Shown: in pieces, positions 18 to 64,000 of the stretch
Layout: each line of letters begins with the position of its first letter
How positions within the stretch are numbered: position 1 is the stretch's first letter
NCBI GenBank assembly: GCA_026023565.1
Contig: JAPETS010000002.1
Coordinates: 248,001 to 312,000 of the forward strand
Reading direction: 5' to 3'
DNA: 64,000 nucleotides
Origin: Cirrosporium novae-zelandiae
Taxonomy: Eukaryota
Translations under genes and position numbers: made by a program
The notes under the pieces: generated by a model
Databases searched by the model: none
The model's input: the letters and a program-made list of their open reading frames with translations, nothing else
What the model was told of the DNA's origin: nothing

Positions 18-3000
18 ATGAACAGCTCTAAACCTTCACCGACCGCTCCATCCTTGAAGCGCAGCAAGACTCAACCTGCTCGCAAATTTCCTCCTCGAGA
101 AGCCTTCCCTCCACCTCGTCCTGATTTCGTCACAGATAGCGTCCTTATCGATAGTTCCCCATCGGTAAAAATCAGTCCGCCTAAAGGTGGAAGTGAAAGC
201 GTTAGTGGAAGTGGAAATGGACATGGAAATGGAACCCCAGATGGAAATCGAGGCGCTAGACCCACACCCAAGTCGCGGCAATCTACAGGAGGTACAAGGA
301 GACTTGCTGCTGCTTTCGCCGCTACTGCGCATATGAACGATGAGAATCAGAAGCCAAAGCCTACCACCGCTGCTTCGGCGATAAACGGGAGTGGAATTAT
401 GCATGGAAGACCTCAGGCTTTCAGGCACGGAAACTCGAAGTCTCTTGCTGGGTTTATGCAAGGAGATGTTACACCAAGTCCATCAAGAACACGACGAGAC
501 CGCCGCCTATCTCCGAAGTCAACCGCGTCTAGTCCTCCGAGAGGATCTCTTAGGTCACTTAGAGGACTTAGAAATTACCAGCGCTCCAACAAAGAAGGCA
601 GTCAAAAGTCTCATTCGGAAGACTATTTCGAAGACATCATGGGACTTGTGGATGAGCTAGCGGTCAATCAGCGATATATGGACTACGATCGTGAGCGCAA
701 CTTTGAAAGATCGCTTGAAACACCACCTTCACTCAAATGGCGGCGTGGTACTATGTACGACTCTCCAAGAACCAATGATATTGCTGAGTTGGAACAAGAA
801 AATGAGGCTCAGGATGGAGAAATGGACGTTTCCATCTCCGATCTTGGCTCGATGTCCAGTTTCTTTGATACTATGACAGACCGCGATCTGGCAGCTAAGT
901 TGGCGCAACATGCCAGGGACGAACAGAGAATGTCTGGTGCGATCTCCAGAAATACTCCGGTCTTTGGTAGATTTACAACTGAGCGACCAGGGTTGACATT
1001 TGAGAATTTGCAGCGCCGTGAGCAGGAAGAGAAGGCAAATACAACTATTACACCAGAAAAGAAGCTTCCGATAGCCGCGTCCTTACCCTTTGTAGGTTCG
1101 CCGAAGGACATCGAGGGAAGTATGGCTGGCTCGGAATGGTCAGGACGACAGAATGTACCAAGGGCTTGGGGGAGACATGGAAAAGCTAGGAAAGAATGGC
1201 TCAAAGAGATTAATCGCAATCGACGTAGCCAAACAGGAAGCCCGAATGATAGTGTTCTTGAAAGTTTCCCTCAAATCGAGAAGGCTCCCTTAAACCCTTC
1301 GGACCAACAAACAGAACAACCAGGTGATGACTGGGTTGTTGCGACAGCAGCTAATGTGCCTTTGCCCTCTACAGAAGGTAGCACATCTAGCCAAACCCCA
1401 GCTACTTCAGATTCCATTATTTCCTCAACCGGCTCTTTGGATAAGCTCAAGGAATGGGAGTATCTCGACCAAGATTTCACCGCCAGGTCACTGCAGGTTT
1501 CGCAGACGCCTACGATAAAGAGAAAAATAGATCGCATACAGGACGAAATCGATGCGCTGGAGAAACGAGGTGTTGCAAAAGGAATTCTTCTTAAAGTTCA
1601 CGGCAAGGCCTCGCTTGAGCAACTCCGGAGAACAAAGTCAAATCCAGAGTCAAATCCAGAGTCCAATGATGCAAATTTCGAGGACGAAACAAAATCAGTA
1701 CTAAATGAGCCACAGCCGCAATCGCAGCCAACAGGAGATTTACCCGCCAGTGGCAGCGTCATAGATGAAAAGGGTAATACACTTTCCGTCACCCCGGTCG
1801 TTGACGATAGATCTCGACCGAATTCTGTTTCTGAACACAATAATAACCTTGAAGCAGCTTTAGGAGAGGATGACACACTCAAATTAAAGACCCATTTCCG
1901 GCCACCTCTCGAGAAACAAGATTCAAGGGATGTCCTCCGTCGCCTATCTAGGGTTACAAGTGCCAGCCCCAATTCGCCAGGATCAAGTGCGGTGAGGTCA
2001 AGCTCGGCCCTCAACCATAGAGAGGCAGAAACCAGCACATTGGGTATCCGAGATCCAGAAAAGCATGGTAGAGCACATAGCGATGGTGAAATCGAGCTTC
2101 CGTCTACAATAAATATAGAAGAGACGCCCCAAATGCCGAAGAGGTTTCTTCCAGCTTTTGCGGCCAAAACACCAGTCGTCACCGGCGCATGGATTGATAC
2201 TCCTTATACACAACGCCAGGGACGTCCATCATCTATTCCATCTATCTCATCGAAACGAAGTTCGAAGAGAAGCAGTTTTGCCAACTTTTTTAGGTCTAAG
2301 AAGGCTATGTCTCGACAAGCTTCTCAAGAGCTGAAAGAAGAAACACCCGCAACCACAAATAATGACAAAATTACGGAAGACTTAGAGCGCCCAGAGCATC
2401 CCCGAAGCGCTTTAGAAGAAGTCATCACCGGAGCTAAAAAGGCAAAGTCGGACAAGTCCGAAAAATCAGTAAAAGATGGATACAATGAAGACGATATGCC
2501 TATTGGCGACGATACAATCGCCTCTCTAGAAGAACTCCTCCAAAACGGCGACGCAACTCTTACCGCCCTAGCCTTTTCTGATGGCGAGGAAACTGCAGGT
2601 GATGATAAATCCTTAGATTCTAAAGGTCGATCTCTTCACCGACGACGCGATTCTCCCGACCCTCTTTACTTCGAGCGCCTGAATTCCCGCCTTCGGCTCA
2701 CTGGTCTCAGCATCCGTGATACAAAGAGAGGGATCTCAAAATTGGAACATCAAGTTGCCCGTGGCGCTGGGGGTGAGGCCTGGAGTTGCAGTCACTGTGG
2801 CGGGAATCACGCTACCGGACTTCATACTGGACCTGGGGCAACAATTCATTTCCTCGCAATCCCAGTGCCAAAACTCTGGAACTGGAAACGCGGGAACTGG
2901 CTGCCTAGGCTTACATGGCTGGGATGGTTCGTGTTTACTTTGTTGGCTTGGTACACGACTGAGAACATGTTATGGTAAGTCTCCTTTAATCGTTTCTTCC

Positions 3001-3352
3001 CCATTTCCATCTTACTAATACCTCTTGTAGTGAGATATATTGTCACCCACTCTACGCTACCGAAATTTATAACTATGGCGTCGACCTTAATGCACCCCGC
3101 ATGCCCTGGGTGACTGTAACGATGCTCGGACGATGGACGCGACTGAGTCTTCTCCTCAAACCTCTCATGGTTCTTTTCCGATTCCTCGCACGGCTATTCG
3201 GTTACGGCGACGAAACCAGCACAGCACCCCCCAGCACTAGCAATTCCAGGATCTTCACCCCAAGGATGGTCGTACCGACCGTCGGTGTGCCTATACCAGG
3301 GATGGCCGCAGAAGAACAATGGCTCGGTATGAATGATGATGAATATTTATGA
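18..3352 (+). CDS. Large Ser/Arg-rich low-complexity hypothetical protein with a C-terminal coiled coil and hydrophobic segment; 2 exons (18-2974, 3031-3352)
   Basis: The 986-aa ORF ends at a GTAAGT donor (2975), with branch TACTAAT and TAG acceptor (3030). Splicing gives ...TTENMLC-EIYCHPLYATEIYNYGVDLNAPRMPW..., in frame with the 3101-3352 ORF. Hydrophobic stretch WLGWFVFTLLAWY. Confidence 0.75.
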
Positions 3353-10914: not shown

Positions 10915-13266
10915 TCAACCGCGGATTGCAGTAGGAGCTGGAGAATCAAATAGGCCCGGCTGCATCGTTTGGTAGGGGAATGCTAGCGAGACTGGAGATC
11001 CAGAACGGGAGGCAAAGTCCCCAAAGTCAGACCCCGCTTTTGGAACAGGGGAAGTCGAACGAACTAACGTCGGACTAGAGCTGCGAAACAAAAAAGAGTC
11101 CTCCATGTGGGGAGAGGTAGGACCAGCCTTAGCGTTGCGTTCAGGGCGAAACTTAGAAACCAGCGCGTCTTCCATGGGACCATCTGTCTGGACAATCTTG
11201 TCTTCCTCCGATGGGGAAGGAGCCTTTTCTAGTTGAGGGGTGGACTTGTGGGATCCAAACTGCATCGACTATTAGCACACCTGTCTGGTCTAAGGATCCT
11301 AGGTATTTCGAGGACGTACGAAGCAATACTTGTTAAGAAGTTCATGATAAGAGGAGGATTGCATGGAAGGCTTCTCTGACATTAGTGCCGATGGCTTAGG
11401 ATGGTGAGTTGCTGTATAAGTATCGGTTGCCGTAGTAAAACCACTTGAGCCAACTTTGTTCATATTAAACATTGGGTTGGGGGATGGCCTCCGAGCAATA
11501 AGATTCTTTGCTGAATATGCTCCTACATCACGTTCCATTTCTTGGGGGGGCGACCCGGTGCCTCGTTCCCCCATATTTTGCATGGCAGCACTCAAAGAGG
11601 CGGAAAAGTCATAGCGGTTCCCAAAGGCTTGCCCAGTAGCATTATTTCGTTTAACTGGAGCACCAGCCACCAGCTCGTCCTTCGACTGAGGTTTCTTGAG
11701 TCGAATAGGGGCATCTTCGAACGAACGAGGTGGAGCTGGGTCAAATGGCCCGAAATTTGTATCAAACCCGTGAGCAAAATCATCAAAAGAAACAGGCATA
11801 GAACGAGGACGTGTGACGGTAGAAGGTTGAGGCCGACTTCGAGGCAAGGAATGCAGCGTACGCGAGCCTACTCCTTGCTTGCCCTGGAACGGCTTTGGCT
11901 TCTTTGTGAAATCAACCTGATAGTTTAATGATCGATTGTTGTCCCAAAGCTCTATTCCATTCACGTTATAACGCACACAGAAGAACAATGTTTTCGTTTC
12001 AAGGTTAGCTTGGTCAGCAAGCTTAATGGTGAAAGAAAAGCGATCACGCCCATCATGTGCCTGCTTACGACGAACATCTTGAGTGTATTCTGCCATGACT
12101 TCGGAGGTCGTTTTCCAATAATCTAGAGTGAACCTCACCGTAACAGACTTGTTGAAAGCAATATTCTGCACAGATACAGTGCCCACTAGGTTCTTGTTAT
12201 CTGAAGACAAAAAGATTCGTTCAACGGTGACTGGTTCTGCCTTGCGATCTACAGCATCAGAGGAAAAGTTGGCTAATCGAAGCTCCCACTCAAATGGAGG
12301 AGTGCGGAATTGATCATTCCCACCGAAGGGGAATTCAAGCTCATTCTCGTACATGTCCACGGGGGAGGAGCCTGCACTGACAGCAGTAGGTTTATCTACC
12401 TGGAGGAAATGTCGGACATGCTCCAGATGTGAATCAAAGTGTACACTTTTCGAGAATGTTGGAGTGCCTGGCATGCTTGATGGCCGCCTTCGAGATGGAG
12501 GTCGAAGTGAGGGCCGCACCAACTCGCCGGATTTTTTGCGAACCATAGGTGGTTTCTCAGAGAAATCTTCATCGTCACTATCACTAGATGATCCAGAAGG
12601 TTTGCTGTCAACAGAGTAAGATATTGCATCTTGGGTTGCTGACCGAGAGTGAGATATTCGTCGAGCTTCTTTGGATAATGGGGGTCTGAGAGCCACATCA
12701 GATGAGGCTGTCTGCGTCTTGCCGCCTACGGGGCCCCCGCTCTGGACATCATCCCAGTGCCGATGAGGGGAGCCTCCACGAGGGTGTTGCATAATCTTGA
12801 TTGCTGCTTCAAGCTCAGCGAAGCTTGACAACTCACGCGCTCGACTTCTCGAATTCTCTTCATCGTCGCTGGAACTATGGGTAGAATCTGGTGGAGATAC
12901 TAACGCACCTGGAGGAATGAATGAGTCGCTCACAGGGGGAGGTGATTGGCGAAGACTGCCATTCACGTCTGTCTTGCTCTGCCTCCGAGAGGCAGTGGGT
13001 GAACTGCCATATTGGCCCAAGCACTTTACCTCGTTTGTGTTGGAATCGGCAAAAGTAGTATTCGGTTTAGATATGGAAGGGCTTCTTCGGTGCTTGTGTA
13101 GGTATGTAGTCGACGAGGCTGAACGAGGAAGGCTTGGTCTTCGACCGCCATTCTGGATCGGGCTGCCTTCCAACTTCGGCCTGGTTTGCGAGGCAAGACG
13201 GCCGACATCTGAAGTCTTCAGGTGTGTAGCAATTGGTGATTGCTGGGAAGGGGGAGTGTAAGGCAT
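10915..13266 (-). CDS. GAC1: Protein phosphatase 1 glycogen-targeting regulatory subunit (Gac1-like, CBM21 domain); 2 exons, intron 11260-11319
   Basis: RVxF-type motif KSVHF and CBM21 signature GTVSVQNIAFNKSVTVRFTLDYW...WDNNRSLNY. The intron GTACGT...GCTAAT...CAG joins NKYCF to FGSHK. Confidence 0.88.
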
Positions 13267-26603: not shown

Positions 26604-27414
26604 CGTGGAGATACCGTCAACGATATGAAAGATAATGTAGATTCTAAGTCTAACTGTCACTAGGCGCGGTAAAATAATATGGCTGGCTATATATAGCAAG
26701 TACGAGTAACCATCCTATCTTACTTCAAGAAGAAGGCTCTACCCTACATCATGTTAGCCTCCTGAACTCAAACTTCATTTCCCGTATACGATTAAAGCAT
26801 TCGGCCGTTATATCTGAGAAAATCGATATAATATAGAATATTAGATCTTCATCTTTTTATATTGGCATAACGGGTGATCCAAGACTAGGTTTGGAAAAGA
26901 GCATGTGATATCGCTTTTCTTTGTTTAACAGATATTCATGAGACACCTGGAAGGTAGCTGTTTCTTGCAATTGAGGTGTCGTTAGGGAGATTATGAATGC
27001 TGATGCTGAGTGCTGCACGGGCACGAAATTGTAGGGAAACTGTGAAGCTGCATTGCTCTACTTTAGAGCTAGACATTATCGAAAATTAAGCCCTCACAGC
27101 AAAATGACTTGATGCTGGACCTCCCTAGGCTGATGATCCTATCGAGATGAGATGAGATGTGTGACTTGCATCATGATCATAGCTTCCCGTTTATGTTTAA
27201 CATGGTTTTAGTACAAGCGTTTTGGGCCTTCGATTGTCGTTTTTTTTCTTCTCTGTGATATGAATAGCTATATCATTTCAACATATTCTTTTTCAAAAAG
27301 AAGGGAAAAGAAAGGGAATGATCTTCAACCAACCACACCTCCCCTAACCCCCACCCTCCTCCTCCACCTCTCTCAAAAACCCAAAAAAACAAACACCAAA
27401 CCCACTCTCTGTAT

Positions 27415-27515
27415 TGCATTAGCCGTGAATCGAACACGGAGCTCGTCGAACTTTCTCATTCATTCATTCTCAGAATCAATGGCAACGACGAATTTTACCA
27501 TTAAACCACTAATGC
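27415..27515 (-). tRNA. tRNA-Gly(GCC) with a 30-nt canonical intron (27450-27479)
   Basis: Minus strand GCATTAGTGGTTTAATGGTAAAATTCGTCGTTGCCA[intron]TCGACGAGCTCCGTGTTCGATTCACGGCTAATGCA. Acceptor GCATTAG/CTAATGC, anticodon stem CGTCG/CGACG, T-arm CCGTG-TTCGATT-CACGG. Confidence 0.93.
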
Positions 27516-27754
27516 TGTTGTAAATCACTGATTGGATGAATGTATGGGGTTGGAAATGGGAACATATGTGTCAATGTTGAAAGAAAAGGGGTGGGAGGGG
27601 CGGGGAATGGGGGAGGGTGGGACACAACACTGACCGCTCTTTTAGAATTTTTTTATGGCCGGTTCCACTTTCTCTCTCTGTTTTCCCACCAGTGCTTTCT
27701 TTTTTTTAATATACATACATACCGCATTAATGTTACGTTTAATAAAAAGAAAAG

Positions 27755-27911
27755 GCTCCTATAGCTCAGTTGGTAGAGCGCAGCACTAGTACCAAGCCTA
27801 TCCAAGCAAAAAGCAAAATGCTGAGGTCTTCAGGTAAGCAAAAGAAAAAGAAAATATACAAGTTAGCATATTCTAATGAGATATTCATTAGTTCAAATCT
27901 GAATGGGAGCA
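27755..27911 (+). tRNA. tRNA-Thr(AGT) with two introns: canonical 37/38 intron (27792-27817) and a spliceosomal-type GT-AG intron in the T-arm (27834-27891)
   Basis: Exons 27755-27791, 27818-27833 and 27892-27911 give GCTCCTATAGCTCAGTTGGTAGAGCGCAGCACTAGTA-ATGCTGAGGTCTTCAG-TTCAAATCTGAATGGGAGCA (73 nt). Acceptor GCTCCTA/TGGGAGC, D-stem GCTC/GAGC, anticodon stem CAGCA/TGCTG, T-stem TTCAG/CTGAA, T-loop TTCAAAT. Confidence 0.88.
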
Positions 27912-27938
27912 AAAAAATATTCACGATTGTGATTTATC

Positions 27939-27945
27939 TTTTTTT
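27939..27945 (+). terminator. Pol III oligo(dT) terminator downstream of tRNA-Thr
   Basis: T7 run about 28 nt after the discriminator base. It is the first run of four or more T after the tRNA start. Confidence 0.6.
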
Positions 27946-28196
27946 GGGGGAGAGCTCGCTTAGTTGAGTTTAGCCCTAATTTGTTTGGGAAGTTGTGGGT
28001 TAGGGCTAGTTAGTGAATAGGAGCTTCTTCTTTTTTCGTTTCTAGGGAGTTTGTTGGGTTTGTAGGGAAGTTTGTGAGATGGGCGAATAGATGATATAAT
28101 TATTGAATCATTTCCTACCTCGCATACACCCACCCCCAAATCTTCCGACTCCCATCACACCTTCAACAGAAGAGGGCCTCGCACCTCTTTCGATCA

Positions 28197-28271
28197 GGTC
28201 GGTTGGTGTAGTTGGTTAATCGCATCTGTCTAACACACAGCAGGTCTCTAGTCCAGTCCTTGAATCGATCG
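28197..28271 (+). tRNA. tRNA-Val(AAC), with a degenerate T-arm (probable pseudo-tRNA)
   Basis: GGTCGGTTGGTGTAGTTGGTTAATCGCATCTGTCTAACACACAGCAGGTCTCTAGTCCAGTCCTTGAATCGATCG. Acceptor GGTCGGT/ATCGATC and anticodon loop CTAACAC are intact. The T-loop reads TCCAGTC rather than TTCRANY, and the T-stem has a mismatch. Confidence 0.7.
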
Positions 28272-28559
28272 CTGATTAGGGATTTTTGGGTGCGTTCTTT
28301 ACCTTTTGGGAAGTGAAGAACTTTTTTATATCGGAGGCCCGCAGGGGATAGCTTATTCAATCAATTGGTATTATTATCCATAACAGTAGTATACTTTAAT
28401 AGAATATCCACCGTACTGGCCATTCCATTCATTTGACTCCCGTTAACATCATGTGATATCACAAAGTAGGTAGACAATCAGCCGTGGGGCTGAGGACCCT
28501 CGTCATGATCTTGATACGCCTATAACTCCATGGTAATTTTCCAGGTATTCATCGTGTTT

Positions 28560-31500
28560 TTAACCCCTGGCAACCCCTTCCACGAATCCTAGTGCCTCTT
28601 CCATGCTGACCCTCTCAACCTTGCTGGCCTTCCCCGCATAAACGACCCCGTAGCACTTCCCGGCACTCCTTACCATCTCCGGTCTAAATGTCGTGCAGAT
28701 AAACTGGCTCTTCTGCCCGCTCGCATCTCCCTTCTCCGAAATCTCGGCTAACAGATCTGCCACCGCTTGGCGGTACTGCGAGTCAAGAGCGGCATCGATT
28801 TCATCAAAGAGATAAAAGGGCGCGGGATCGCAAGCTTGGATGCTGAAGATGAGGGTTAGAGCACAGAGAGACTTTTGTCCGCCGGAGAGGGCCTGGATGC
28901 GGAGGGGAGCAGAGGTAGGGGAAAAGGAAACGGAGATGCCGATGCCAATGTAGTTGTCCACCGAACTTTTATTGCCTTCTTCGTCATCGGATTCCTCTTC
29001 TCCCGCAGCAGCCGCGCGGTCTTTGTCGATTTTCCTTTGAATGACAAGACGCCCAGAACCCTGGGGTACCAGGCGTTGGAATATTCGGCTGAATTCTTTA
29101 GAGACTTGCTTGAAAGTTCGTTCGATAGCTTCGTCTTTTCTTTGATCTAGCACGCTGATAAGCTCTCTGATGCTGTCTTGACTTTTATCCAGCTCCTCTC
29201 TCCTTCCCATAAGCGTCTCACGCTGCCGAGTGAAATTTTGATATTGTTCAAACGCCTTCTTGTTGACAGACCCATACTTTTTCAGAGCAGCGCTGACAGC
29301 ATGAAGGCGCTTGACAAGGGTATTGGAAGATGCGCTCGTGAACCTTGTGAATGCTTCTTCAGGAAGGACACCAAGAGCACGAATGTTGGCGGCACAAGTG
29401 GCTGCTGACGCTGCGAGAACGGCACGTTTTTGTGTTGACTTCTCAAGTAATCTTTGATGGCGCGATATTTGCTTGGCGAGGTTTTCTTGACCAGTGCGGA
29501 GATTGGAGATTTGGGATTCGAGGTCGTGAACTTGGGTAATTTGTGACTCAATTTGGGCTGTGAGATCTGAGAGCTTCGATTCAGTGGTGTTAAGGCTTTT
29601 GGTAAGACGCTTGAGAAGACGTTCTGCGTCACGGACCGATGTTCGAGAGGAAGTAGGGCTGGTTGGATCATCATCATCGGCACCACCATCTTCTTCCGCA
29701 GTAGTAAGAGCCTCAAGGCGAGGTTGCAAGTTTTCACGAAGTTCGACCTCCAGGACGGATTTCTGGGTTTCGAGATCGGAACGCGTCGAGGAAATGGTCG
29801 TATATTGTCGGCGAAGGTCTTGCACTGCGACACTGAGACTTTCAAGTTGGGCTTCTTCCTCATTGCTGAGGGCTTTCTTGAAAGAGGTAGATAGTTCTTC
29901 TTCGTGTGCATTCTGCTGCTCACTCAAAGCACGAAGGTTAGAGTCGATATTCGCAAGAGCGCGATGTTTGGCTTCCAATGCATCCTCTTTCGTATGTAGG
30001 GCATCGACCTTGGCTTTGAGCTCCTGCCGAAGAGGGAGATAACTGTTTTGGATTTGCTGACGTTTTTGCTCAAGTTTTTGAAGCTCTCCAACTGCGCGAG
30101 TAATTTCTTGATCCATGCGTTCCAAACTGCGACGGAGTTCAATACTACGGTTTCTAAGCGATTCGTATTCTTCGCGCCATTTGGAAACGTTACGAACGCC
30201 TTCTAGACGGGACGACCGAGGATCGTGGAAACCTCCCGTCAAGGCACCCTTCTTGTCTGATCGGTCGCCATCTGGAGTAATGGCATTGACACCATGACTC
30301 CGTGCATAGGTTGAGCAGACAGATAGATTCGGACAGATGATGGTTTTGCCAAAGACTTGTTGGAAAGCCTTGTCATATTTGACATCATATTGAAGCTTTT
30401 CAATCATTGGGAGGGCATCACCTGCTTTTGGGAGGTCTTGAGGCCTAGGTCGTAGCCGGTTCAAAGGCATGAATGTGATACGACCGGCCTTTTCCTTTTG
30501 CAATATCTCAAGAACCTTAGTTGCAGTGTCGTCATTATCCACCACGTAGTGGAAAAGACTGTTCCCGGCAGTAACCTCCACGGCAATTCGGAACCTCTCA
30601 TGAACCTCCACAAGTTCAGCCAAAGTACCGTAAACACCTTCCATATTGTACCGTTGTTTAATTCGACGAACAGCCGCTAAACCTCGGCTGGTATTCTGGT
30701 CCATCATATGTGATAAGGCTCGGTCCGCTTTATCGAGTTCTTGTTGAGCGTTTGCTATAACAGAATCGAGTTTGGCATCCTCACGCCACAGCTCCTTCCG
30801 CTGGTCCATCAAACGATCACGCTCATCCTTGGCACTTTGTACTTGAGTATCAAGAGATTGCAATGTCTCCGTTCTGCTATCCAATTGAGCTCGAAGCTGC
30901 TGTATTTCGCCTTCTCTATCCGTTTTCTCCTTTTCCAGTTCGGTAATATCATCGGTTGTCTGCATTCTGTTGGCCCGAACTTTGGCCACTGATTCATAGG
31001 TATTGTCAATCTCTTGTCTCAGCCACCCGTCTCTTTCAGCTTTGTTCCGAAATCTTGAATTACGGCCTTGTTTGGCATATAATCGCTGGCGAGTCGTCTC
31101 AGCCTCATCTAATTGAGCCTTGACAGATTCCTCCTCCTCTTTTCTGGCTTGAAATTGCGGAAGAATCTGGGCAAGCTCTGCCTCCCTCTGTTGTATCAAG
31201 TTCTGAACATTCTCAAGTTCCTGGTCACGTTGCACCTTCTTTTGATCTGCGGCTGATTGACCCTCTCGCAAGTTGTTCAACTGAAGCTCGGCTTTGGCTT
31301 TGGCTCGCGCATTCTCTTTTCGTTCGTCCTCAAGCTGGGCCTTGTCAACTTTGAGGAATTCCATTTGCTGTTTAAGCTCGGAGATTTCTCCATTGATCCG
31401 GGCCATTTCTTTTTCATTCTGAATGAACTGGTCTCGATTATCGTCAGTGTCGTCCACACCAGTCTGGCGCTTTTCATCCAATTCATCTAGAGCCCTTTGA

Positions 31501-32204
31501 ATCTCTTCTTGTTCCCGAACATAAATAGTGTATTCTAAGCATCTCCGTTCTCGATCTTTCTCTTGATAGGTCCTAAGCTCATCTTTCTCTTCTTCTAGTT
31601 CACCGAGACGTTCATTAATATAGGCCAAGAGTTCATCAATCTTTGCTCGTTTATTTGAAGTATCTCCCATAATTTTCAAACTTTCGGCCCGTCTAGCTTC
31701 ATAGACTTGAGTCCCTGCTACTTCCTTAAGTAGATTGAGGCGTTCCGTATCTTTCATGTTCGTCAATGTCGTAACACGTCCTTGCGGGACTATGTAGTAA
31801 GGATTCGATCGGGAAAAGCCTGCAGATTCTAGTAGATTCATTACATCGGCTTTGGTCGCATTTTTGCGATCCAAGGAGTATTCATCTTTCTTGAGACCAA
31901 TGGTTCGTCGTAGCACCACCTCGTCTCTGCCGGTCGGAAAACGCTCGTCTGAATTATCGAATATGATCTCCACATAGGCTGACATGACAGCAGAACCGGA
32001 TCCCTCGTGAAGTAAACCCTGTCTCTCTTCGCGGTTCATCTGGGTGTAGGCATCGCTGAGAACGAAACGAATGGCGGCGAAGAAATTACTCTTCCCAGAA
32101 CCGTTGCGTCCGACAATTACATTATTTTGGGGGGAAAAGGGCTCGATGACTGTTTGGTCTTTGTAGGACTTGAAGCCCTGAATGATGATTTGTTTGATAT
32201 ACAT
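28560..32204 (-). CDS. SMC3: Cohesin subunit SMC3 (SudA/Psm3), intronless
   Basis: MYIKQIIIQGFKSYKDQT, Walker A GRNGSGKSN, acetylation patch RRTIGLKKDEY, hinge GVYGTLAEL, signature LSGGQKS, Walker B FYLFDEIDAALD; 1214 aa. Confidence 0.98.
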   Translation of the reverse strand: MYIKQIIIQGFKSYKDQTVIEPFSPQNNVIVGRNGSGKSNFFAAIRFVLSDAYTQMNREERQGLLHEGSGSAVMSAYVEIIFDNSDERFPTGRDEVVLRRTIGLKKDEYSLDRKNATKADVMNLLESAGFSRSNPYYIVPQGRVTTLTNMKDTERLNLLKEVAGTQVYEARRAESLKIMGDTSNKRAKIDELLAYINERLGELEEEKDELRTYQEKDRERRCLEYTIYVREQEEIQRALDELDEKRQTGVDDTDDNRDQFIQNEKEMARINGEISELKQQMEFLKVDKAQLEDERKENARAKAKAELQLNNLREGQSAADQKKVQRDQELENVQNLIQQREAELAQILPQFQARKEEEESVKAQLDEAETTRQRLYAKQGRNSRFRNKAERDGWLRQEIDNTYESVAKVRANRMQTTDDITELEKEKTDREGEIQQLRAQLDSRTETLQSLDTQVQSAKDERDRLMDQRKELWREDAKLDSVIANAQQELDKADRALSHMMDQNTSRGLAAVRRIKQRYNMEGVYGTLAELVEVHERFRIAVEVTAGNSLFHYVVDNDDTATKVLEILQKEKAGRITFMPLNRLRPRPQDLPKAGDALPMIEKLQYDVKYDKAFQQVFGKTIICPNLSVCSTYARSHGVNAITPDGDRSDKKGALTGGFHDPRSSRLEGVRNVSKWREEYESLRNRSIELRRSLERMDQEITRAVGELQKLEQKRQQIQNSYLPLRQELKAKVDALHTKEDALEAKHRALANIDSNLRALSEQQNAHEEELSTSFKKALSNEEEAQLESLSVAVQDLRRQYTTISSTRSDLETQKSVLEVELRENLQPRLEALTTAEEDGGADDDDPTSPTSSRTSVRDAERLLKRLTKSLNTTESKLSDLTAQIESQITQVHDLESQISNLRTGQENLAKQISRHQRLLEKSTQKRAVLAASAATCAANIRALGVLPEEAFTRFTSASSNTLVKRLHAVSAALKKYGSVNKKAFEQYQNFTRQRETLMGRREELDKSQDSIRELISVLDQRKDEAIERTFKQVSKEFSRIFQRLVPQGSGRLVIQRKIDKDRAAAAGEEESDDEEGNKSSVDNYIGIGISVSFSPTSAPLRIQALSGGQKSLCALTLIFSIQACDPAPFYLFDEIDAALDSQYRQAVADLLAEISEKGDASGQKSQFICTTFRPEMVRSAGKCYGVVYAGKASKVERVSMEEALGFVEGVARG

Positions 32205-32340
32205 GGCGAAATGATGGCTTTTTCAGGAGGTCTTTAACGATTGGGGGCGGTCGGTTAGACTAGGAATGTCATGATATGAGGAAAACCATTCAATATTGCG
32301 ATAGTGAGGTTGAGTTAGTTTCCCGAAGCTTCAACTTGCG

Positions 32341-32346
32341 ACGCGT
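32341..32346. promoter_or_regulatory. MCB element ACGCGT in the SMC3/RIO1 divergent promoter
   Basis: Exact MluI box about 140 nt upstream of the SMC3 ATG, with a near-copy GGCGCGTT about 15 nt away. Cohesin genes are classic MBF targets in yeasts. Confidence 0.5.
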
Positions 32347-32506
32347 TCATATTGAATGGCGCGTTAGGGTTGCCAAGATTCTCGGGCCTACCTTATCGAT
32401 AGGCGAAGGCTGCCCAACGCTGTACCGACCTGCGCCTGTTGGAGAAATAATTAATTTCAAAGACTCATCATCTTTGACTTCAAATATCTTTTTTCCATCC
32501 ATTATT

Positions 32507-34219
32507 ATGTCTTCGCCCACCAACGACAACAAAGTTTCCGAGGGTCAAAGCCTTGTTGATGGCATAGCGCCACCAGATACATATGTTCCAAACCTTGGCT
32601 ATGTGAAAAGGTCTGATGAAGAGGGCGGGGTGTTGTTGCCACAACCCCAAGAAACCGCTGCAGAGGATGGAGAAGAGGAGGATGAAGACTATAATGATAT
32701 TTTCAACGAAGATGAAGAGCTAGATGTGACTGATCTGGCAGCCGCAAACCCTTCCGATTTCACAAAATCTTATAATCGCCATCGACGCCTCAACGAAGCA
32801 GCTTCTGACCCAAACGCTCCAAAATCTTCATACCCCAAGGCAAATCCCCAGAAACCCAGCGCAAATACCTTAGCTTCTATAGACGATCAGATCACCTCAC
32901 TATCTCGTCATGCTACTAAAATCAAGCTTGATGACGCGCAGTCTGGGCTTGCAGGCCCTCGCACCAAAACAGCAGATAAAAGTGATCGCGCGACGTCAGA
33001 ACAGGTTCTTGACCCTCGAACACGAATGATATTGCTACAAATGATCAACCGCAACATTGTTTCCGAAGTCAACGGTTGTATATCTACAGGTAAAGAAGCG
33101 AATGTTTACCATGCGCTCACAATTCCGCAAGAAGACCTCTCCTCCGATGAGGCACAGCTCCCTCTCCAGCGTGCAATAAAAGTCTACAAAACCAGCATTC
33201 TTGTCTTCAAAGACCGTGCCAAGTATGTCAGCGGCGAGTTTCGATTTCGATCTGGGTACAGCAAAAGCAATAATCGCGCAATGGTGAAATTATGGGCCGA
33301 GAAAGAAATGCGTAATCTCAAACGCATATATGCGGCTGGAATACCATGTCCTGAACCACTTCATCTACGCCTGCATGTCCTTGTCATGTCGTTCCTGGGG
33401 AACAACCGCGGAATTTCCTACCCCAAACTCAAAGATGCTGAGATAGTGGGCGAGAATGCCGACACAAAGTGGTATGCTTTGTATATCCAACTATTGAGTT
33501 ACATGCGGATCATGTTCCAAGTATGCAAACTAGTTCACGCCGATCTAAGCGAATACAACATATTGTACCATAAAGAGAAACTCTATCTCATAGACGTCAG
33601 TCAGTCGGTTGAACACGACCACCCACGGAGTTTGGAATTCCTTCGCATGGATATCAAAAATGTATCCGATTTCTTCAGGCGGAAAGGCGTGCAAACACTC
33701 TCTGGAAGCACCACCTTCTCCTTTGTCATAAACTCATCGGACCCTATTGACGTAGTAGGCATGAACGAGACATTGGACAAGCTGTACGAAAACAGAGGCG
33801 AAGATGAAAATGAGGAAGATGAGGAAGTTTTTAGGCAACAATATATCCCACAAACTCTGGAACAGGTTTACGACGCCGAGCGCGATACAGAGAACATAGC
33901 CCAGAATGGAACAAACGATCTTGTCTACCGCGATTTACTCGCAGATAAAATCGTACAGCCAAAGCCCGCAGAAGATGAAACCATTAGTGTAAGCAGCGAT
34001 ATCTCTGATAACAGCAACTTCAACTCAGAGGGGTCCGAAGGAGACGAGGATCTATTCAAGAAAAAGGCGCCGCGAGGGCGTAAACACGAAGATAAAACAG
34101 AGAAGCACGCCCATAAAATGGCTGTGAAGGAGGAGAAGCGTGAGAAGCGACAGAATAAGATGCCAAAGTACATCAAAAAGCAGCTGGTTAAGAGTACGGC
34201 TAGGCACAAAAAGTATTAG
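32507..34219 (+). CDS. RIO1: Atypical Ser/Thr kinase RIO1 (SudD); likely start at ATG 32507
   Basis: DKSDRATSEQVLDPRTRMIL, STGKEANVYH, LVHADLSEYN, IDVSQSVEHDHP and a basic C-terminal tail. Confidence 0.96.
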   Translation: MSSPTNDNKVSEGQSLVDGIAPPDTYVPNLGYVKRSDEEGGVLLPQPQETAAEDGEEEDEDYNDIFNEDEELDVTDLAAANPSDFTKSYNRHRRLNEAASDPNAPKSSYPKANPQKPSANTLASIDDQITSLSRHATKIKLDDAQSGLAGPRTKTADKSDRATSEQVLDPRTRMILLQMINRNIVSEVNGCISTGKEANVYHALTIPQEDLSSDEAQLPLQRAIKVYKTSILVFKDRAKYVSGEFRFRSGYSKSNNRAMVKLWAEKEMRNLKRIYAAGIPCPEPLHLRLHVLVMSFLGNNRGISYPKLKDAEIVGENADTKWYALYIQLLSYMRIMFQVCKLVHADLSEYNILYHKEKLYLIDVSQSVEHDHPRSLEFLRMDIKNVSDFFRRKGVQTLSGSTTFSFVINSSDPIDVVGMNETLDKLYENRGEDENEEDEEVFRQQYIPQTLEQVYDAERDTENIAQNGTNDLVYRDLLADKIVQPKPAEDETISVSSDISDNSNFNSEGSEGDEDLFKKKAPRGRKHEDKTEKHAHKMAVKEEKREKRQNKMPKYIKKQLVKSTARHKKY

Positions 34220-49570: not shown

Positions 49571-50823
49571 TTATGATGTTAAACTGTGGCCAAGGGATAG
49601 ATATCCTCCTGCCGCTATTATCAGGCCATCCTGAAGACATTTCCAATCAAAACTGGTCCTAATCCTATTCAAAAAGGCATGACCCCCCCTCTGCAGGATA
49701 TTCTGGGGCATATTTTCCAAATAGTTCCGTTAGGGGCTTCTCATACCAACCCTCTCGAATCAACTGGGCTTCAATCTCTTTCCAGTACTTGAGTTTATCT
49801 CCAGTTGGTTGTTTCAAGTCCAAATCACCTAAACGGGCTTCTATTTGACCTGCCCCTGGTGGAGGTATCTTGAGACAATGTTAGTCAGGCCATAAACCAG
49901 GGATGGCTGCGAAAATATAGGGAAAAACATACCTTTATGAACAAACTGCAATCCCTCAACGTCATGGCCGTCAAGAACTCTGGTGTAATCTCGTCCATCT
50001 GAAAAATTCCTTGATTATCAAATTTCTGCTGCAACCTCTTCATAAGGGGCAAAATTGGACTGTCCAGCAAAAATCGAAGAATTCTTTGTTGTAACCATTT
50101 GGGCTGATGTGGTGCAATAAGATCCGTGACTTGTTCCACAACGCTCTCATCGCTAGACATCAGGTCCAGCGGACAAAATCCACCGGCTTCTGGTTTCTTT
50201 CCTCTAGAAAGCCTCTCAAAGTCACGCATCTTCTTTAGGGCACATGTTCGGCAGCGAACGGCCTTTTTAGGTGCTGATGGTGATTGTGCTAGCCACTTTG
50301 GCTTGAAACTGATCATGATTTCCCCATCGATAGTTGGCGTCATGTCCGTTATTAACAGACCAAACTCATCGTTTTCGAAATGGTAGACATTATGACGTTT
50401 CTCTTTTCGCTTACCAGTCTTTTCCATTATCTGCAATAGGGAATTGCAGCTGGAGGTGAGATGTGGAGGTAATCTGACAAGTTCCTGTTCCACAAGGTCT
50501 TCCTTAGGAAAGAGCGGCTTGATGTACTCTTCAAATCGCGCGAAGCACACCTCTGGTGGTATTGTAGATGGGATCATCTTTCGCAAGCGGAGTAATTTGC
50601 CCTTGAAAGGGTTGGTAGGTTCCTTTAGATAGCTTGTGGAAGGTGTGCTCGTAATTGAGGCATCGAGCATTGGAACATCGCCGTCAAGAAGGCTATCCAG
50701 CTGTTCTTCTGGGGGTTTCTTGGCATCAGCTGGAACATGGATGAAGTAAACGACGTTGGCAGCTCCTTCATCGAGGAATTGGACACTCGTCTCCCCTGGT
50801 ATCTGGGCGAGTTGTTTCTGCAT
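49571..50823 (-). CDS. IPK1: Inositol-pentakisphosphate 2-kinase; 2 exons, intron 49869-49932
   Basis: EGAANVV, LLRLRK, FKPKWLAQSPSAP...RCRTCA, FCPLDL and AMTLRDCSLFIK; after splicing, ARLGDLDLK...KLKYWKEIE. Confidence 0.9.
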
Positions 50824-63408: not shown

Positions 63409-64000
63409 CTAGTCGAGTTTGCTAGTTTTCATTTGACGAGAGAAATACACCGAACGAGGTTCGGTTTTTTCTCTTCGAGAATTCCAGAATTCAATAATAT
63501 TTGGGAGGGATTTTTGGTTGACAAATCCAATGTTGATGACCTTCACATCGTAATTTACAATGTAAATTTCATCAAGGTCAACGCTTGAATTGGGATGTAA
63601 TATCTGGTCGGGGTTTACTGGTATGATGCTGATTGATCTTTTGGGATCGACGGATTCTTGTTCAGGGGAGAATGGCTGTTCGCCTTCGATGTGAGTCATG
63701 ATATGTGACGCTTGATCAATCTTGTCATTCGAGGAGTCAATAGGTCTAAATAAATTAGCCACACGCAACATGCAATTTTTTTGGAAATTACTTACGAACA
63801 CACGCAACATTCTTCTATATTCTCAACGACAAGCATCCAGGCCAAATCCCAGGTTTTCCGAGATCCATCGCATTGAATAGTTGTTATAGTTTCACCGACA
63901 TCTAACGCGACTTCTGGCAATTTTTCCCGCAGCATTGCAAACACCTGTATATGTATTAGAAACTTTTTTATATTTGAGGTAAGAGAAGATTCCAACCCTT
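63409..64000 (-). CDS. 3' part of a second, diverged DUF6590-like gene (5' end lies beyond the window); intron 63746-63795
   Basis: VFAMLREK...MLVVENIEECCVC-SPIDSS...SSVDLDEIYIVNYDVKVINIGFVNQKSLPNIIEFW aligns by eye with the domain at 56.3-56.9 kb. Confidence 0.6.

Follow-up and report, generated by a model that had tools for sequence, protein, structure and literature searches.

A tRNA-Thr(AGU) gene of a filamentous ascomycete with a probable spliceosomal intron in its T-arm

We analyzed a split transfer RNA (tRNA) gene in a 64,000-nucleotide (nt) stretch of the Cirrosporium novae-zelandiae genome (contig JAPETS010000002.1, positions 248,001 to 312,000 of the forward strand), here referred to as the window. 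The gene, a tRNA-Thr(AGT), is interrupted by an ordinary tRNA intron between tRNA positions 37 and 38 (37/38) and by a 58-nt insertion between positions 53 and 54 (53/54), in the T-arm, that carries the signals of a spliceosomal intron. These features of the gene were confirmed in the window. We consider it likely that this is a live tRNA-Thr(AGU) gene transcribed by RNA polymerase III (Pol III) and that its T-arm intron is removed by the spliceosome. Judging from similar genes in metagenome contigs, the window gene most likely belongs to a conserved class with introns at 53/54 in tRNA-Thr(AGU) genes and in at least one tRNA-Ala(UGC) gene. The class is apparently undescribed; a literature search that did not extend to most subscription journals turned up no account of nuclear tRNA genes with a spliceosomal intron.

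After in silico removal of both introns, the three exons form a 73-nt tRNA that ARAGORN identifies as tRNA-Thr(agt), and all of its stems are perfect (Table 1). The T-stem of the joined form, TTCAG/CTGAA, is a perfect helix of 5 base pairs whose strands come from separate exons. Read from the sequence, T8, A14, G18, G19, T33, G53, T54, T55, C56, A58, and C61 are all intact. The Rfam tRNA model matches the gene end to end, with a large insertion placed ahead of the T-arm, and ARAGORN reports no tRNA when it is given the unspliced gene.

Table 1. Positions, strands, and details of the features discussed in the text, numbered from the first nucleotide of the window.
Feature	Position	Strand	Details
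tRNA-Thr(AGT) gene, three exons and two introns	27755..27911	+	Rfam tRNA 36.9 bits, model positions 1-71
Exon 1, tRNA positions 1-37, anticodon AGT	27755..27791	+	
A-box TAGCTCAGTTGG, positions 8-19	27762..27773	+	Box as defined in an excerpt of PMC3978253
Ordinary 37/38 tRNA intron, 26 nt	27792..27817	+	A13 C8 G3 T2
Exon 2, positions 38-53	27818..27833	+	3' end is the T-stem 5' strand TTCAG
Spliceosomal-type intron at 53/54, 58 nt	27834..27891	+	Starts GTAAGC, ends TTAG
5' splice site GTAAGC	27834..27839	+	Directly at exon end; fits GTRNGY
Branch-site motif TTCTAAT	27871..27877	+	Presumed branch A 27876, 15 nt from intron 3' end; fits CTRAY
3' splice site TAG	27889..27891	+	Fits YAG
B-box as in the DNA AGTTCAAATCT	27890..27900	+	Last AG of the intron plus positions 54-62
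Exon 3, positions 54-73	27892..27911	+	
T7 run, presumed Pol III terminator	27939..27945	+	Begins 28 nt past the discriminator base
mRNA intron joining open reading frames	2975-3030	+	Branch motif CTAAT
mRNA intron joining open reading frames	11260-11319	-	Branch motif CTAAT
mRNA intron joining open reading frames	49869-49932	-	
mRNA intron joining open reading frames	63746-63795	-	Branch motif CTAAT
tRNA-Gly(GCC) gene with 30-nt 37/38 intron	27415..27515	-	ARAGORN; Rfam 49 bits; divergent, 240 nt upstream of the tRNA-Thr gene
SMC gene	28560-32204	-	3' end bounds the tRNA stretch; another gene to the left
RIO1 kinase gene	32276-34219	+	

The insertion has a 5' splice site, branch motif, 3' splice site, and length of the U2 type (GT-AG), and its counterparts in related genes combine conserved signals with a drifting interior. 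We scanned the 58-mers of the window on both strands with an anchored pattern (start GT[AG][AT]G[CT], end [CT]AG, and CT[AG]A[CT] 7 to 22 nt ahead of the final YAG), and of 127,886 58-mers only one matched, namely the T-arm insertion. A looser, unanchored splice pattern is frequent, with 61 matches in the window compared to a mean of 56.6 in 20 shuffles; therefore, what counts as signal is not the motifs by themselves but that they coincide exactly with the tRNA break. The length of the insertion falls inside the range of 49 to 64 nt covered by the best-supported messenger RNA (mRNA) introns of the window, which join open reading frames (ORFs). The four of them given in Table 1, of 50 to 64 nt, begin with GTAAGT, GTACGT, or GTATGT and have the branch motif CTAAT or CTAAC, and the hexamer GTAAGC also opens candidate mRNA introns of the window. 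The insertion is too short for a self-splicing group I or group II intron, given that a ribozyme core takes hundreds of nucleotides, and no group I or group II Rfam match was found in the window at E values up to 5.

The preliminary description of this DNA had drawn attention to the A-rich composition of the insertion (A29 T15 G9 C5, or 50% A) and had contrasted it with pyrimidine-rich mRNA introns. This contrast held for the window: 22 candidate mRNA introns, picked by rule in a set that has some false positives and longer introns, contain 19 to 34% A, and some of them are 64 to 71% pyrimidine. The conclusion drawn from it did not. Runs of four or more T (T4 or more) are also absent from 14 of the 22 candidates, so the composition of this single intron is not evidence of selection, and A-richness is not a property of the class, whose other members contain 18 to 44% A.

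We searched metagenome contigs for related genes. When the gene's own exon 2/3 context was used as the pattern, no loci were found. A generic pattern (a common D-arm word, G followed by GTRWGY, 32 to 62 nt, and AG followed by TTCRANTC) yielded at least 117 loci. After in silico removal of the GT...AG segment, ARAGORN detected a tRNA across the junction in 17 of the 117 matches listed. Fourteen of these calls are tRNA-Thr(agt) and one (L112) is tRNA-Ala(tgc); L068 and L098 were also flagged by ARAGORN, and we rejected them as split tRNAs because ordinary structures explain both. Two more loci, L006 and L084, carry the same Thr gene truncated where the contig stops, and we assigned them from their sequence. 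The other 100 of the 117 listed loci have no junction-spanning tRNA; tandem tRNA genes of bacteria and chance matches account for most of them. Overall, we detected tRNA-Thr(AGT) genes with an insertion at 53/54 at a minimum of 16 loci, representing at least 12 distinct sequences from seven contig-name series. Some loci are identical to one another over 600 nt (one sequence is shared by L009, L018, L022, and L105 and another by L062 and L076).

All 12 distinct Thr genes listed have the insertion exactly at 53/54, the only position at which the scan looked, and none has a 37/38 intron. The insertions in the listed relatives are 50 to 62 nt long. Several features that the pattern did not impose are shared: the T-stem is restored after splicing in the listed relatives, positions +4 and +6 of the intron are A and C in 12 of the 12 distinct listed introns, and a CT[AG]A[CTA] motif lies 10 to 17 nt ahead of the 3' end in 10 of the 12. 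By eye, L008 and L106 carry TTAAT and CTTAC, respectively, at the corresponding place. The complete 5' hexamer GTAAGC occurs in 11 of the 12 distinct listed relatives. The tRNA-Ala(TGC) gene (L112:285-422), which has the pair G3:U70, contains a 10-nt 37/38 intron and a 56-nt GTGAGT...CAG insertion at 53/54; its T-stem is perfect after removal, and a T5 run begins 7 nt past the gene. The arrangement is therefore not confined to tRNA-Thr.

With the window gene included (C at 27839), all 13 distinct Thr introns have C at +6 (GTAAGC in 12 and GTGAGC in 1), where the pattern allowed T; in comparison, 9 of the 22 candidate mRNA introns of the window have C there. G53 could pair with this C, and base 52 could pair with the base at +7, mostly as G-U and in L011 as A-U; L008 and the window gene have no pairing between base 52 and +7.

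Three sets of loci among the matches listed have alignable flanks. In the set of five loci, conservation within the intron is limited to GTAAGCT, CTAA, and AG. In the set of three, GTAAGC, AG, and a 13-nt core are conserved, and in the set of two, the introns differ at only 3 positions. The CTAA branch motif is absent in two members of one alignable set. Pairs of introns are mostly 41 to 73% identical, and the window intron is 41 to 57% identical to all others, which is, in our estimation, about what unrelated sequences would show.

The mature parts of these genes have also diverged. Comparison of the mature Thr sequences, of which four are distinct (window, L008 type, L011, and L100), revealed compensatory double changes in eight stem pairs: 3-70, 4-69, 5-68, 7-66, 28-42, 29-41, 49-65, and 52-62. 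Pairs 49-65 and 52-62 span the T-arm intron, and the acceptor pairs link exon 1 to exon 3. Such covariation is what selection on the spliced, folded tRNA would leave. Together with the conservation of splice signals in loci with alignable flanks, it supports the earlier proposal of a live gene. A C50-U64 mismatch in the T-stem is conserved in all three distinct mature metagenome Thr sequences (L008, L011, and L100 types), whereas the T-stem of the window gene is perfect.

According to an excerpt of PMC3978253, tRNA genes are recognized by TFIIIC through an A-box at positions 8-19 and a B-box at positions 52-62, and a downstream stretch of T terminates transcription. Both boxes are present in the window gene, and the B-box is contiguous. 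The preliminary description had pointed out that AG closes both exon 2 and the insertion, and this is the case; the DNA at 27890 to 27900 still reads AGTTCAAATCT. The 3' splice site rebuilds the B-box, as it does in 13 other listed genes, although the pattern partly imposed this. GTTCRANTC is uninterrupted in every gene, with the last G of the intron directly ahead of T54, again a feature partly imposed by the pattern. Position 52 is A or C instead of G in the metagenome family, but G53 is supplied. The suggestion in the preliminary description that G53/T54 may be among the few positions open to a spliceosomal intron overstates how special the site is. Any insertion site between the A-box and the B-box would leave both intact. 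TFIIIC copes with long spacings between the boxes, as is known from older work in yeast.

The longest T-run in the whole window gene is 2, in line with the earlier statement that there is no internal terminator, and the T-runs follow the gene (T3 at 27933-27935, ahead of the T7). None of 14 introns (12 listed Thr, 1 Ala, and the window) contains T4 or more, so the runs of five or more T that the preliminary description had regarded as telling against it do not occur in the related introns. Past the genes, the picture is different. In a set of 13 trailers, consisting of the 14 genes less L011, for which there is no trailer sequence, and with relatives taken from the matches listed, T4 or more occurs within 30 nt of the gene in 12, compared to 11.4% of control windows (binomial P ~6e-11); the loci are partly orthologous, and the T-run P values overstate their independence. 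The sole exception at 30 nt is the window gene, with its T7 beginning at nt 28. For T5 or more, the figures are 9 of the 13 trailers and 4.2% of control windows. The argument for Pol III compatibility made in the preliminary description is thus substantially right, since the contiguous B-box, the lack of oligo-T within the gene, and the terminator after it all stand; the depletion of T-runs over the 14 introns is marginal (P ~0.05).

If our reading is correct, expression of the gene would proceed as follows. TFIIIC would read the A-box and the contiguous B-box, since the AG of the T-arm intron directly precedes T54. Pol III would pass both introns, which are free of oligo-T, and stop at the T7 run downstream. 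The spliceosome would then excise the 58-nt intron by means of G|GUAAGC, the branch A in UUCUAAU, and UAG|, and the joining of G53 to U54 would let the T-arm form. The tRNA splicing endonuclease and a ligase would remove the 26-nt intron from the anticodon loop. End maturation would be of the usual kind and would probably wait for the T-arm to be restored, because the processing enzymes read the mature domain.

Several points weigh against this reading. We infer from the DNA that the gene is transcribed, which polymerase transcribes it, and which machinery splices it. The metagenome pattern itself required GT, AG, the bases at +3 and +5, and part of the B-box, and the joint chance of finding no T4 or longer run in the introns is approximately 0.046 by composition-preserving shuffles and 0.048 by 55-nt flank windows, which is marginal. 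The window intron has no detectable similarity to those of the metagenome family, so common descent is unsupported, and the family is unplaced taxonomically, with no clear coding sequence in its flanks of 300 to 400 nt. In the DNA run X1, exon 1 is covered at the depth of approximately 3 to 5 extra copies, whereas exon 2, the intron, and exon 3 have single-copy depth at 80% likeness; exons 2 and 3 are too short to align alone, and this depth is blind to any 53/54 introns that paralogues may have of their own. The extra depth implies that other Thr-like genes exist, and the window copy could therefore be dispensable.

The class may thus be real while the window copy is a dispensable or dying paralogue, poorly transcribed or left unspliced, with other tRNA-Thr genes doing the decoding. 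In addition to the single-copy depth of exon 2, the intron, and exon 3 in X1, the window copy is unlike its relatives in having a second intron, in its A content, and in the distance to its terminator, the first T4 or longer run beginning at nt 7 to 23 in the relatives. However, a dying copy would not be expected to have perfect stems, intact conserved positions and splice signals, compensated stem changes, and a terminator, and we regard this explanation as unlikely. We give somewhat less credence still to transcription by RNA polymerase II (Pol II), in which a non-coding or read-through transcript is spliced like an mRNA and RNase P and RNase Z then free the tRNA. Spliceosomal splicing is normally tied to Pol II, as an excerpt of PMC8527467 states, and AT-rich, TATA-like stretches lie 35 to 47 nt upstream of the gene. 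Nevertheless, no coding-looking ORF lies over 26,700 to 28,560 on either strand, so that we rejected an overlapping protein-coding gene, and a Pol II unit has no need of the oligo-T trailers (12 of 13) and T4-free introns (14 of 14).

It is very improbable, in our judgment, that a protein endonuclease and ligase of the bulge-helix-bulge type, as in Cyanidioschyzon and archaea with their ectopic tRNA introns, or some other activity, removes the insertion and that its resemblance to a spliceosomal intron is incidental. Cyanidioschyzon merolae does have bulge-helix-bulge introns in the T-arm (excerpts of PMC9602550 and PMC3978253), and L100 can form, at a shifted cut, the 4-base-pair central helix that should separate two 3-nt bulges, yet this is the only one of 12 genes with all four central pairs, and the window gene has at most one of four at three product-equivalent cuts. 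The position also disagrees, with the insertion at 53/54 and the fungal site, 37/38, taken by the other intron of the gene. The conserved parts are GTRAGC, CTAAY at 10 to 17 nt, and the final AG. Least probable, and hardly to be expected, is chance or an artefact, in the form of a tRNA pseudogene with a random insertion or a misassembly. Matches to the loose splice pattern are frequent in the window, at slightly above the level of shuffled sequence, and the only DNA run with the locus may be the assembly's own source; against this, the anchored pattern picks out the insertion alone, and the same architecture occurs in at least 13 further distinct genes. We therefore retain a live Pol III gene with a spliceosomal T-arm intron as the likely explanation.

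The tRNA-Thr gene sits in approximately 1.8 kb without coding-looking ORFs, near the tRNA-Gly(GCC), SMC, and RIO1 genes (Table 1). An initial ARAGORN pass had labelled the tRNA-Gly(GCC) gene as tRNA-Arg(tct). The best non-self matches of RIO1, at 61 to 66% identity, are in lichen-forming Lecanoromycetes (Umbilicaria, Lasallia, Xylographa, and others), Xylona, and Thermoascus, which by protein similarity identifies the host as a filamentous ascomycete (Pezizomycotina) nearest to lichen-forming lineages, for which no close relative is on record. The RIO1 ORF counted from its first ATG encodes 647 amino acids, compared to 570 in the database protein and 556 to 585 in relatives, and the true start is probably further downstream. 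In X1, two short contigs are tRNA-Gly paralogues with variant introns. We found no extra contigs over the 58-nt insertion in the DNA runs and hence no sign that it is a multi-copy element, which falls short of proof that it is not one. None of three DNA runs had joints across the gene at 80% likeness, and X3 had no match. In X2, which like X3 comes from another organism in the same study, a 33-nt piece matches 27759-27791 with 2 differences and is unlike the window after position 37, which is consistent with a 37/38 intron there or with a different gene.

Three metagenome loci with alignable flanks have an additional, inverted copy of tRNA positions 1-53 only, on the minus strand and approximately 110 nt upstream of a complete tRNA-Thr gene (L102:109-171, L111 ~108-175, and L095 ~124-175). 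Each copy ends exactly at the 5' splice site; the sequence beyond it is unrelated and lacks a T-loop for the next ~100 nt. Together with exon 1 of the full gene, the inverted copy makes up a 53-nt inverted repeat, which is probably behind a sub-threshold Rfam match to a microRNA precursor on L102. The inverted copy could be what is left of a sequence copied from a free 5' exon.

Nuclear tRNA introns are taught as one kind, located at 37/38 or defined by a bulge-helix-bulge, and cut by the tRNA endonuclease. The ordinary 37/38 intron is present in the same Thr gene and in its tRNA-Gly neighbor, and the T-arm intron differs from it in position, signals, and presumed machinery. In excerpts of PMC9602550 and PMC3978253, C. 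merolae tRNA genes resemble the window gene in having multiple introns, one of them in the T-arm, where it splits the B-box region. In contrast, a bulge-helix-bulge defines those introns, the tRNA endonuclease cuts them, and they frequently interrupt the A and B boxes; the same excerpts suggest that C. merolae transcribes such genes without TFIIIC. The boxes of the window gene are intact and its signals are spliceosomal.

Spliceosomal introns in other structured RNAs offer further parallels. An excerpt of PMC5855946 reports an intron of the Schizosaccharomyces pombe U6 gene that the spliceosome excises, and unrelated U6 introns in many fungi; it also places spliceosomal introns in U1, U2, U5, and rRNA genes and names no tRNA. 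As described in that excerpt, the U6 introns are like the one here in being short GT...AG introns with a branch site, in a structured Pol III RNA, whose sequences are otherwise unconserved between species. U6 differs in that the host RNA is at the spliceosome's catalytic center, which gives a ready origin by reverse splicing, whereas a tRNA has no such proximity. Unlike the U6 introns, moreover, the T-arm intron separates the two parts of an internal type-2 promoter, whose B-box is completed by the last base of the intron. The ribosomal DNA (rDNA) of lichen mycobionts contains ectopic spliceosomal introns (PMC8527467 in excerpt, citing Bhattacharya et al. 2000), and yeast excised one of these from rRNA made by RNA polymerase I (Pol I). 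These introns share with the window intron their ectopic and spliceosomal character, a length of ~57 nt, a structural RNA host not made by Pol II, and occurrence in the fungal group nearest the host of the window gene. They differ in that they belong to Pol I transcripts and rRNA, and tRNA genes go unmentioned in the excerpt of that source.

Split genes of this type are easily missed. On 13 unspliced related loci, ARAGORN made no call in 10, misplaced the intron in 2, and gave the wrong identity (Phe) in 1, and the Rfam tRNA model scores such genes at only 36 to 48 bits. With detection this low, counts of tRNA-Thr(AGU) genes in such fungi may be wrong. If our interpretation is true, the class exposes a gap in annotation. 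It would also mean that the spliceosome works on Pol III pre-tRNAs in nature; it would provide a natural system for recruitment of the spliceosome without Pol II, and it would bear on how introns enter structured RNAs. More tentatively, we consider it possible that in an ascomycete lineage, and perhaps beyond it, the spliceosome routinely processes Pol III pre-tRNAs, with the 53/54 intron present in most or all tRNA-Thr(AGU) copies, so that the supply of an essential tRNA would depend on the spliceosome. The endonuclease-ligase pathway would then be joined by a third means of removing introns from nuclear tRNAs. Two things may favor the site: the terminal G of the intron also serves as G53 in the B-box, and the T-stem can hold both splice sites close.

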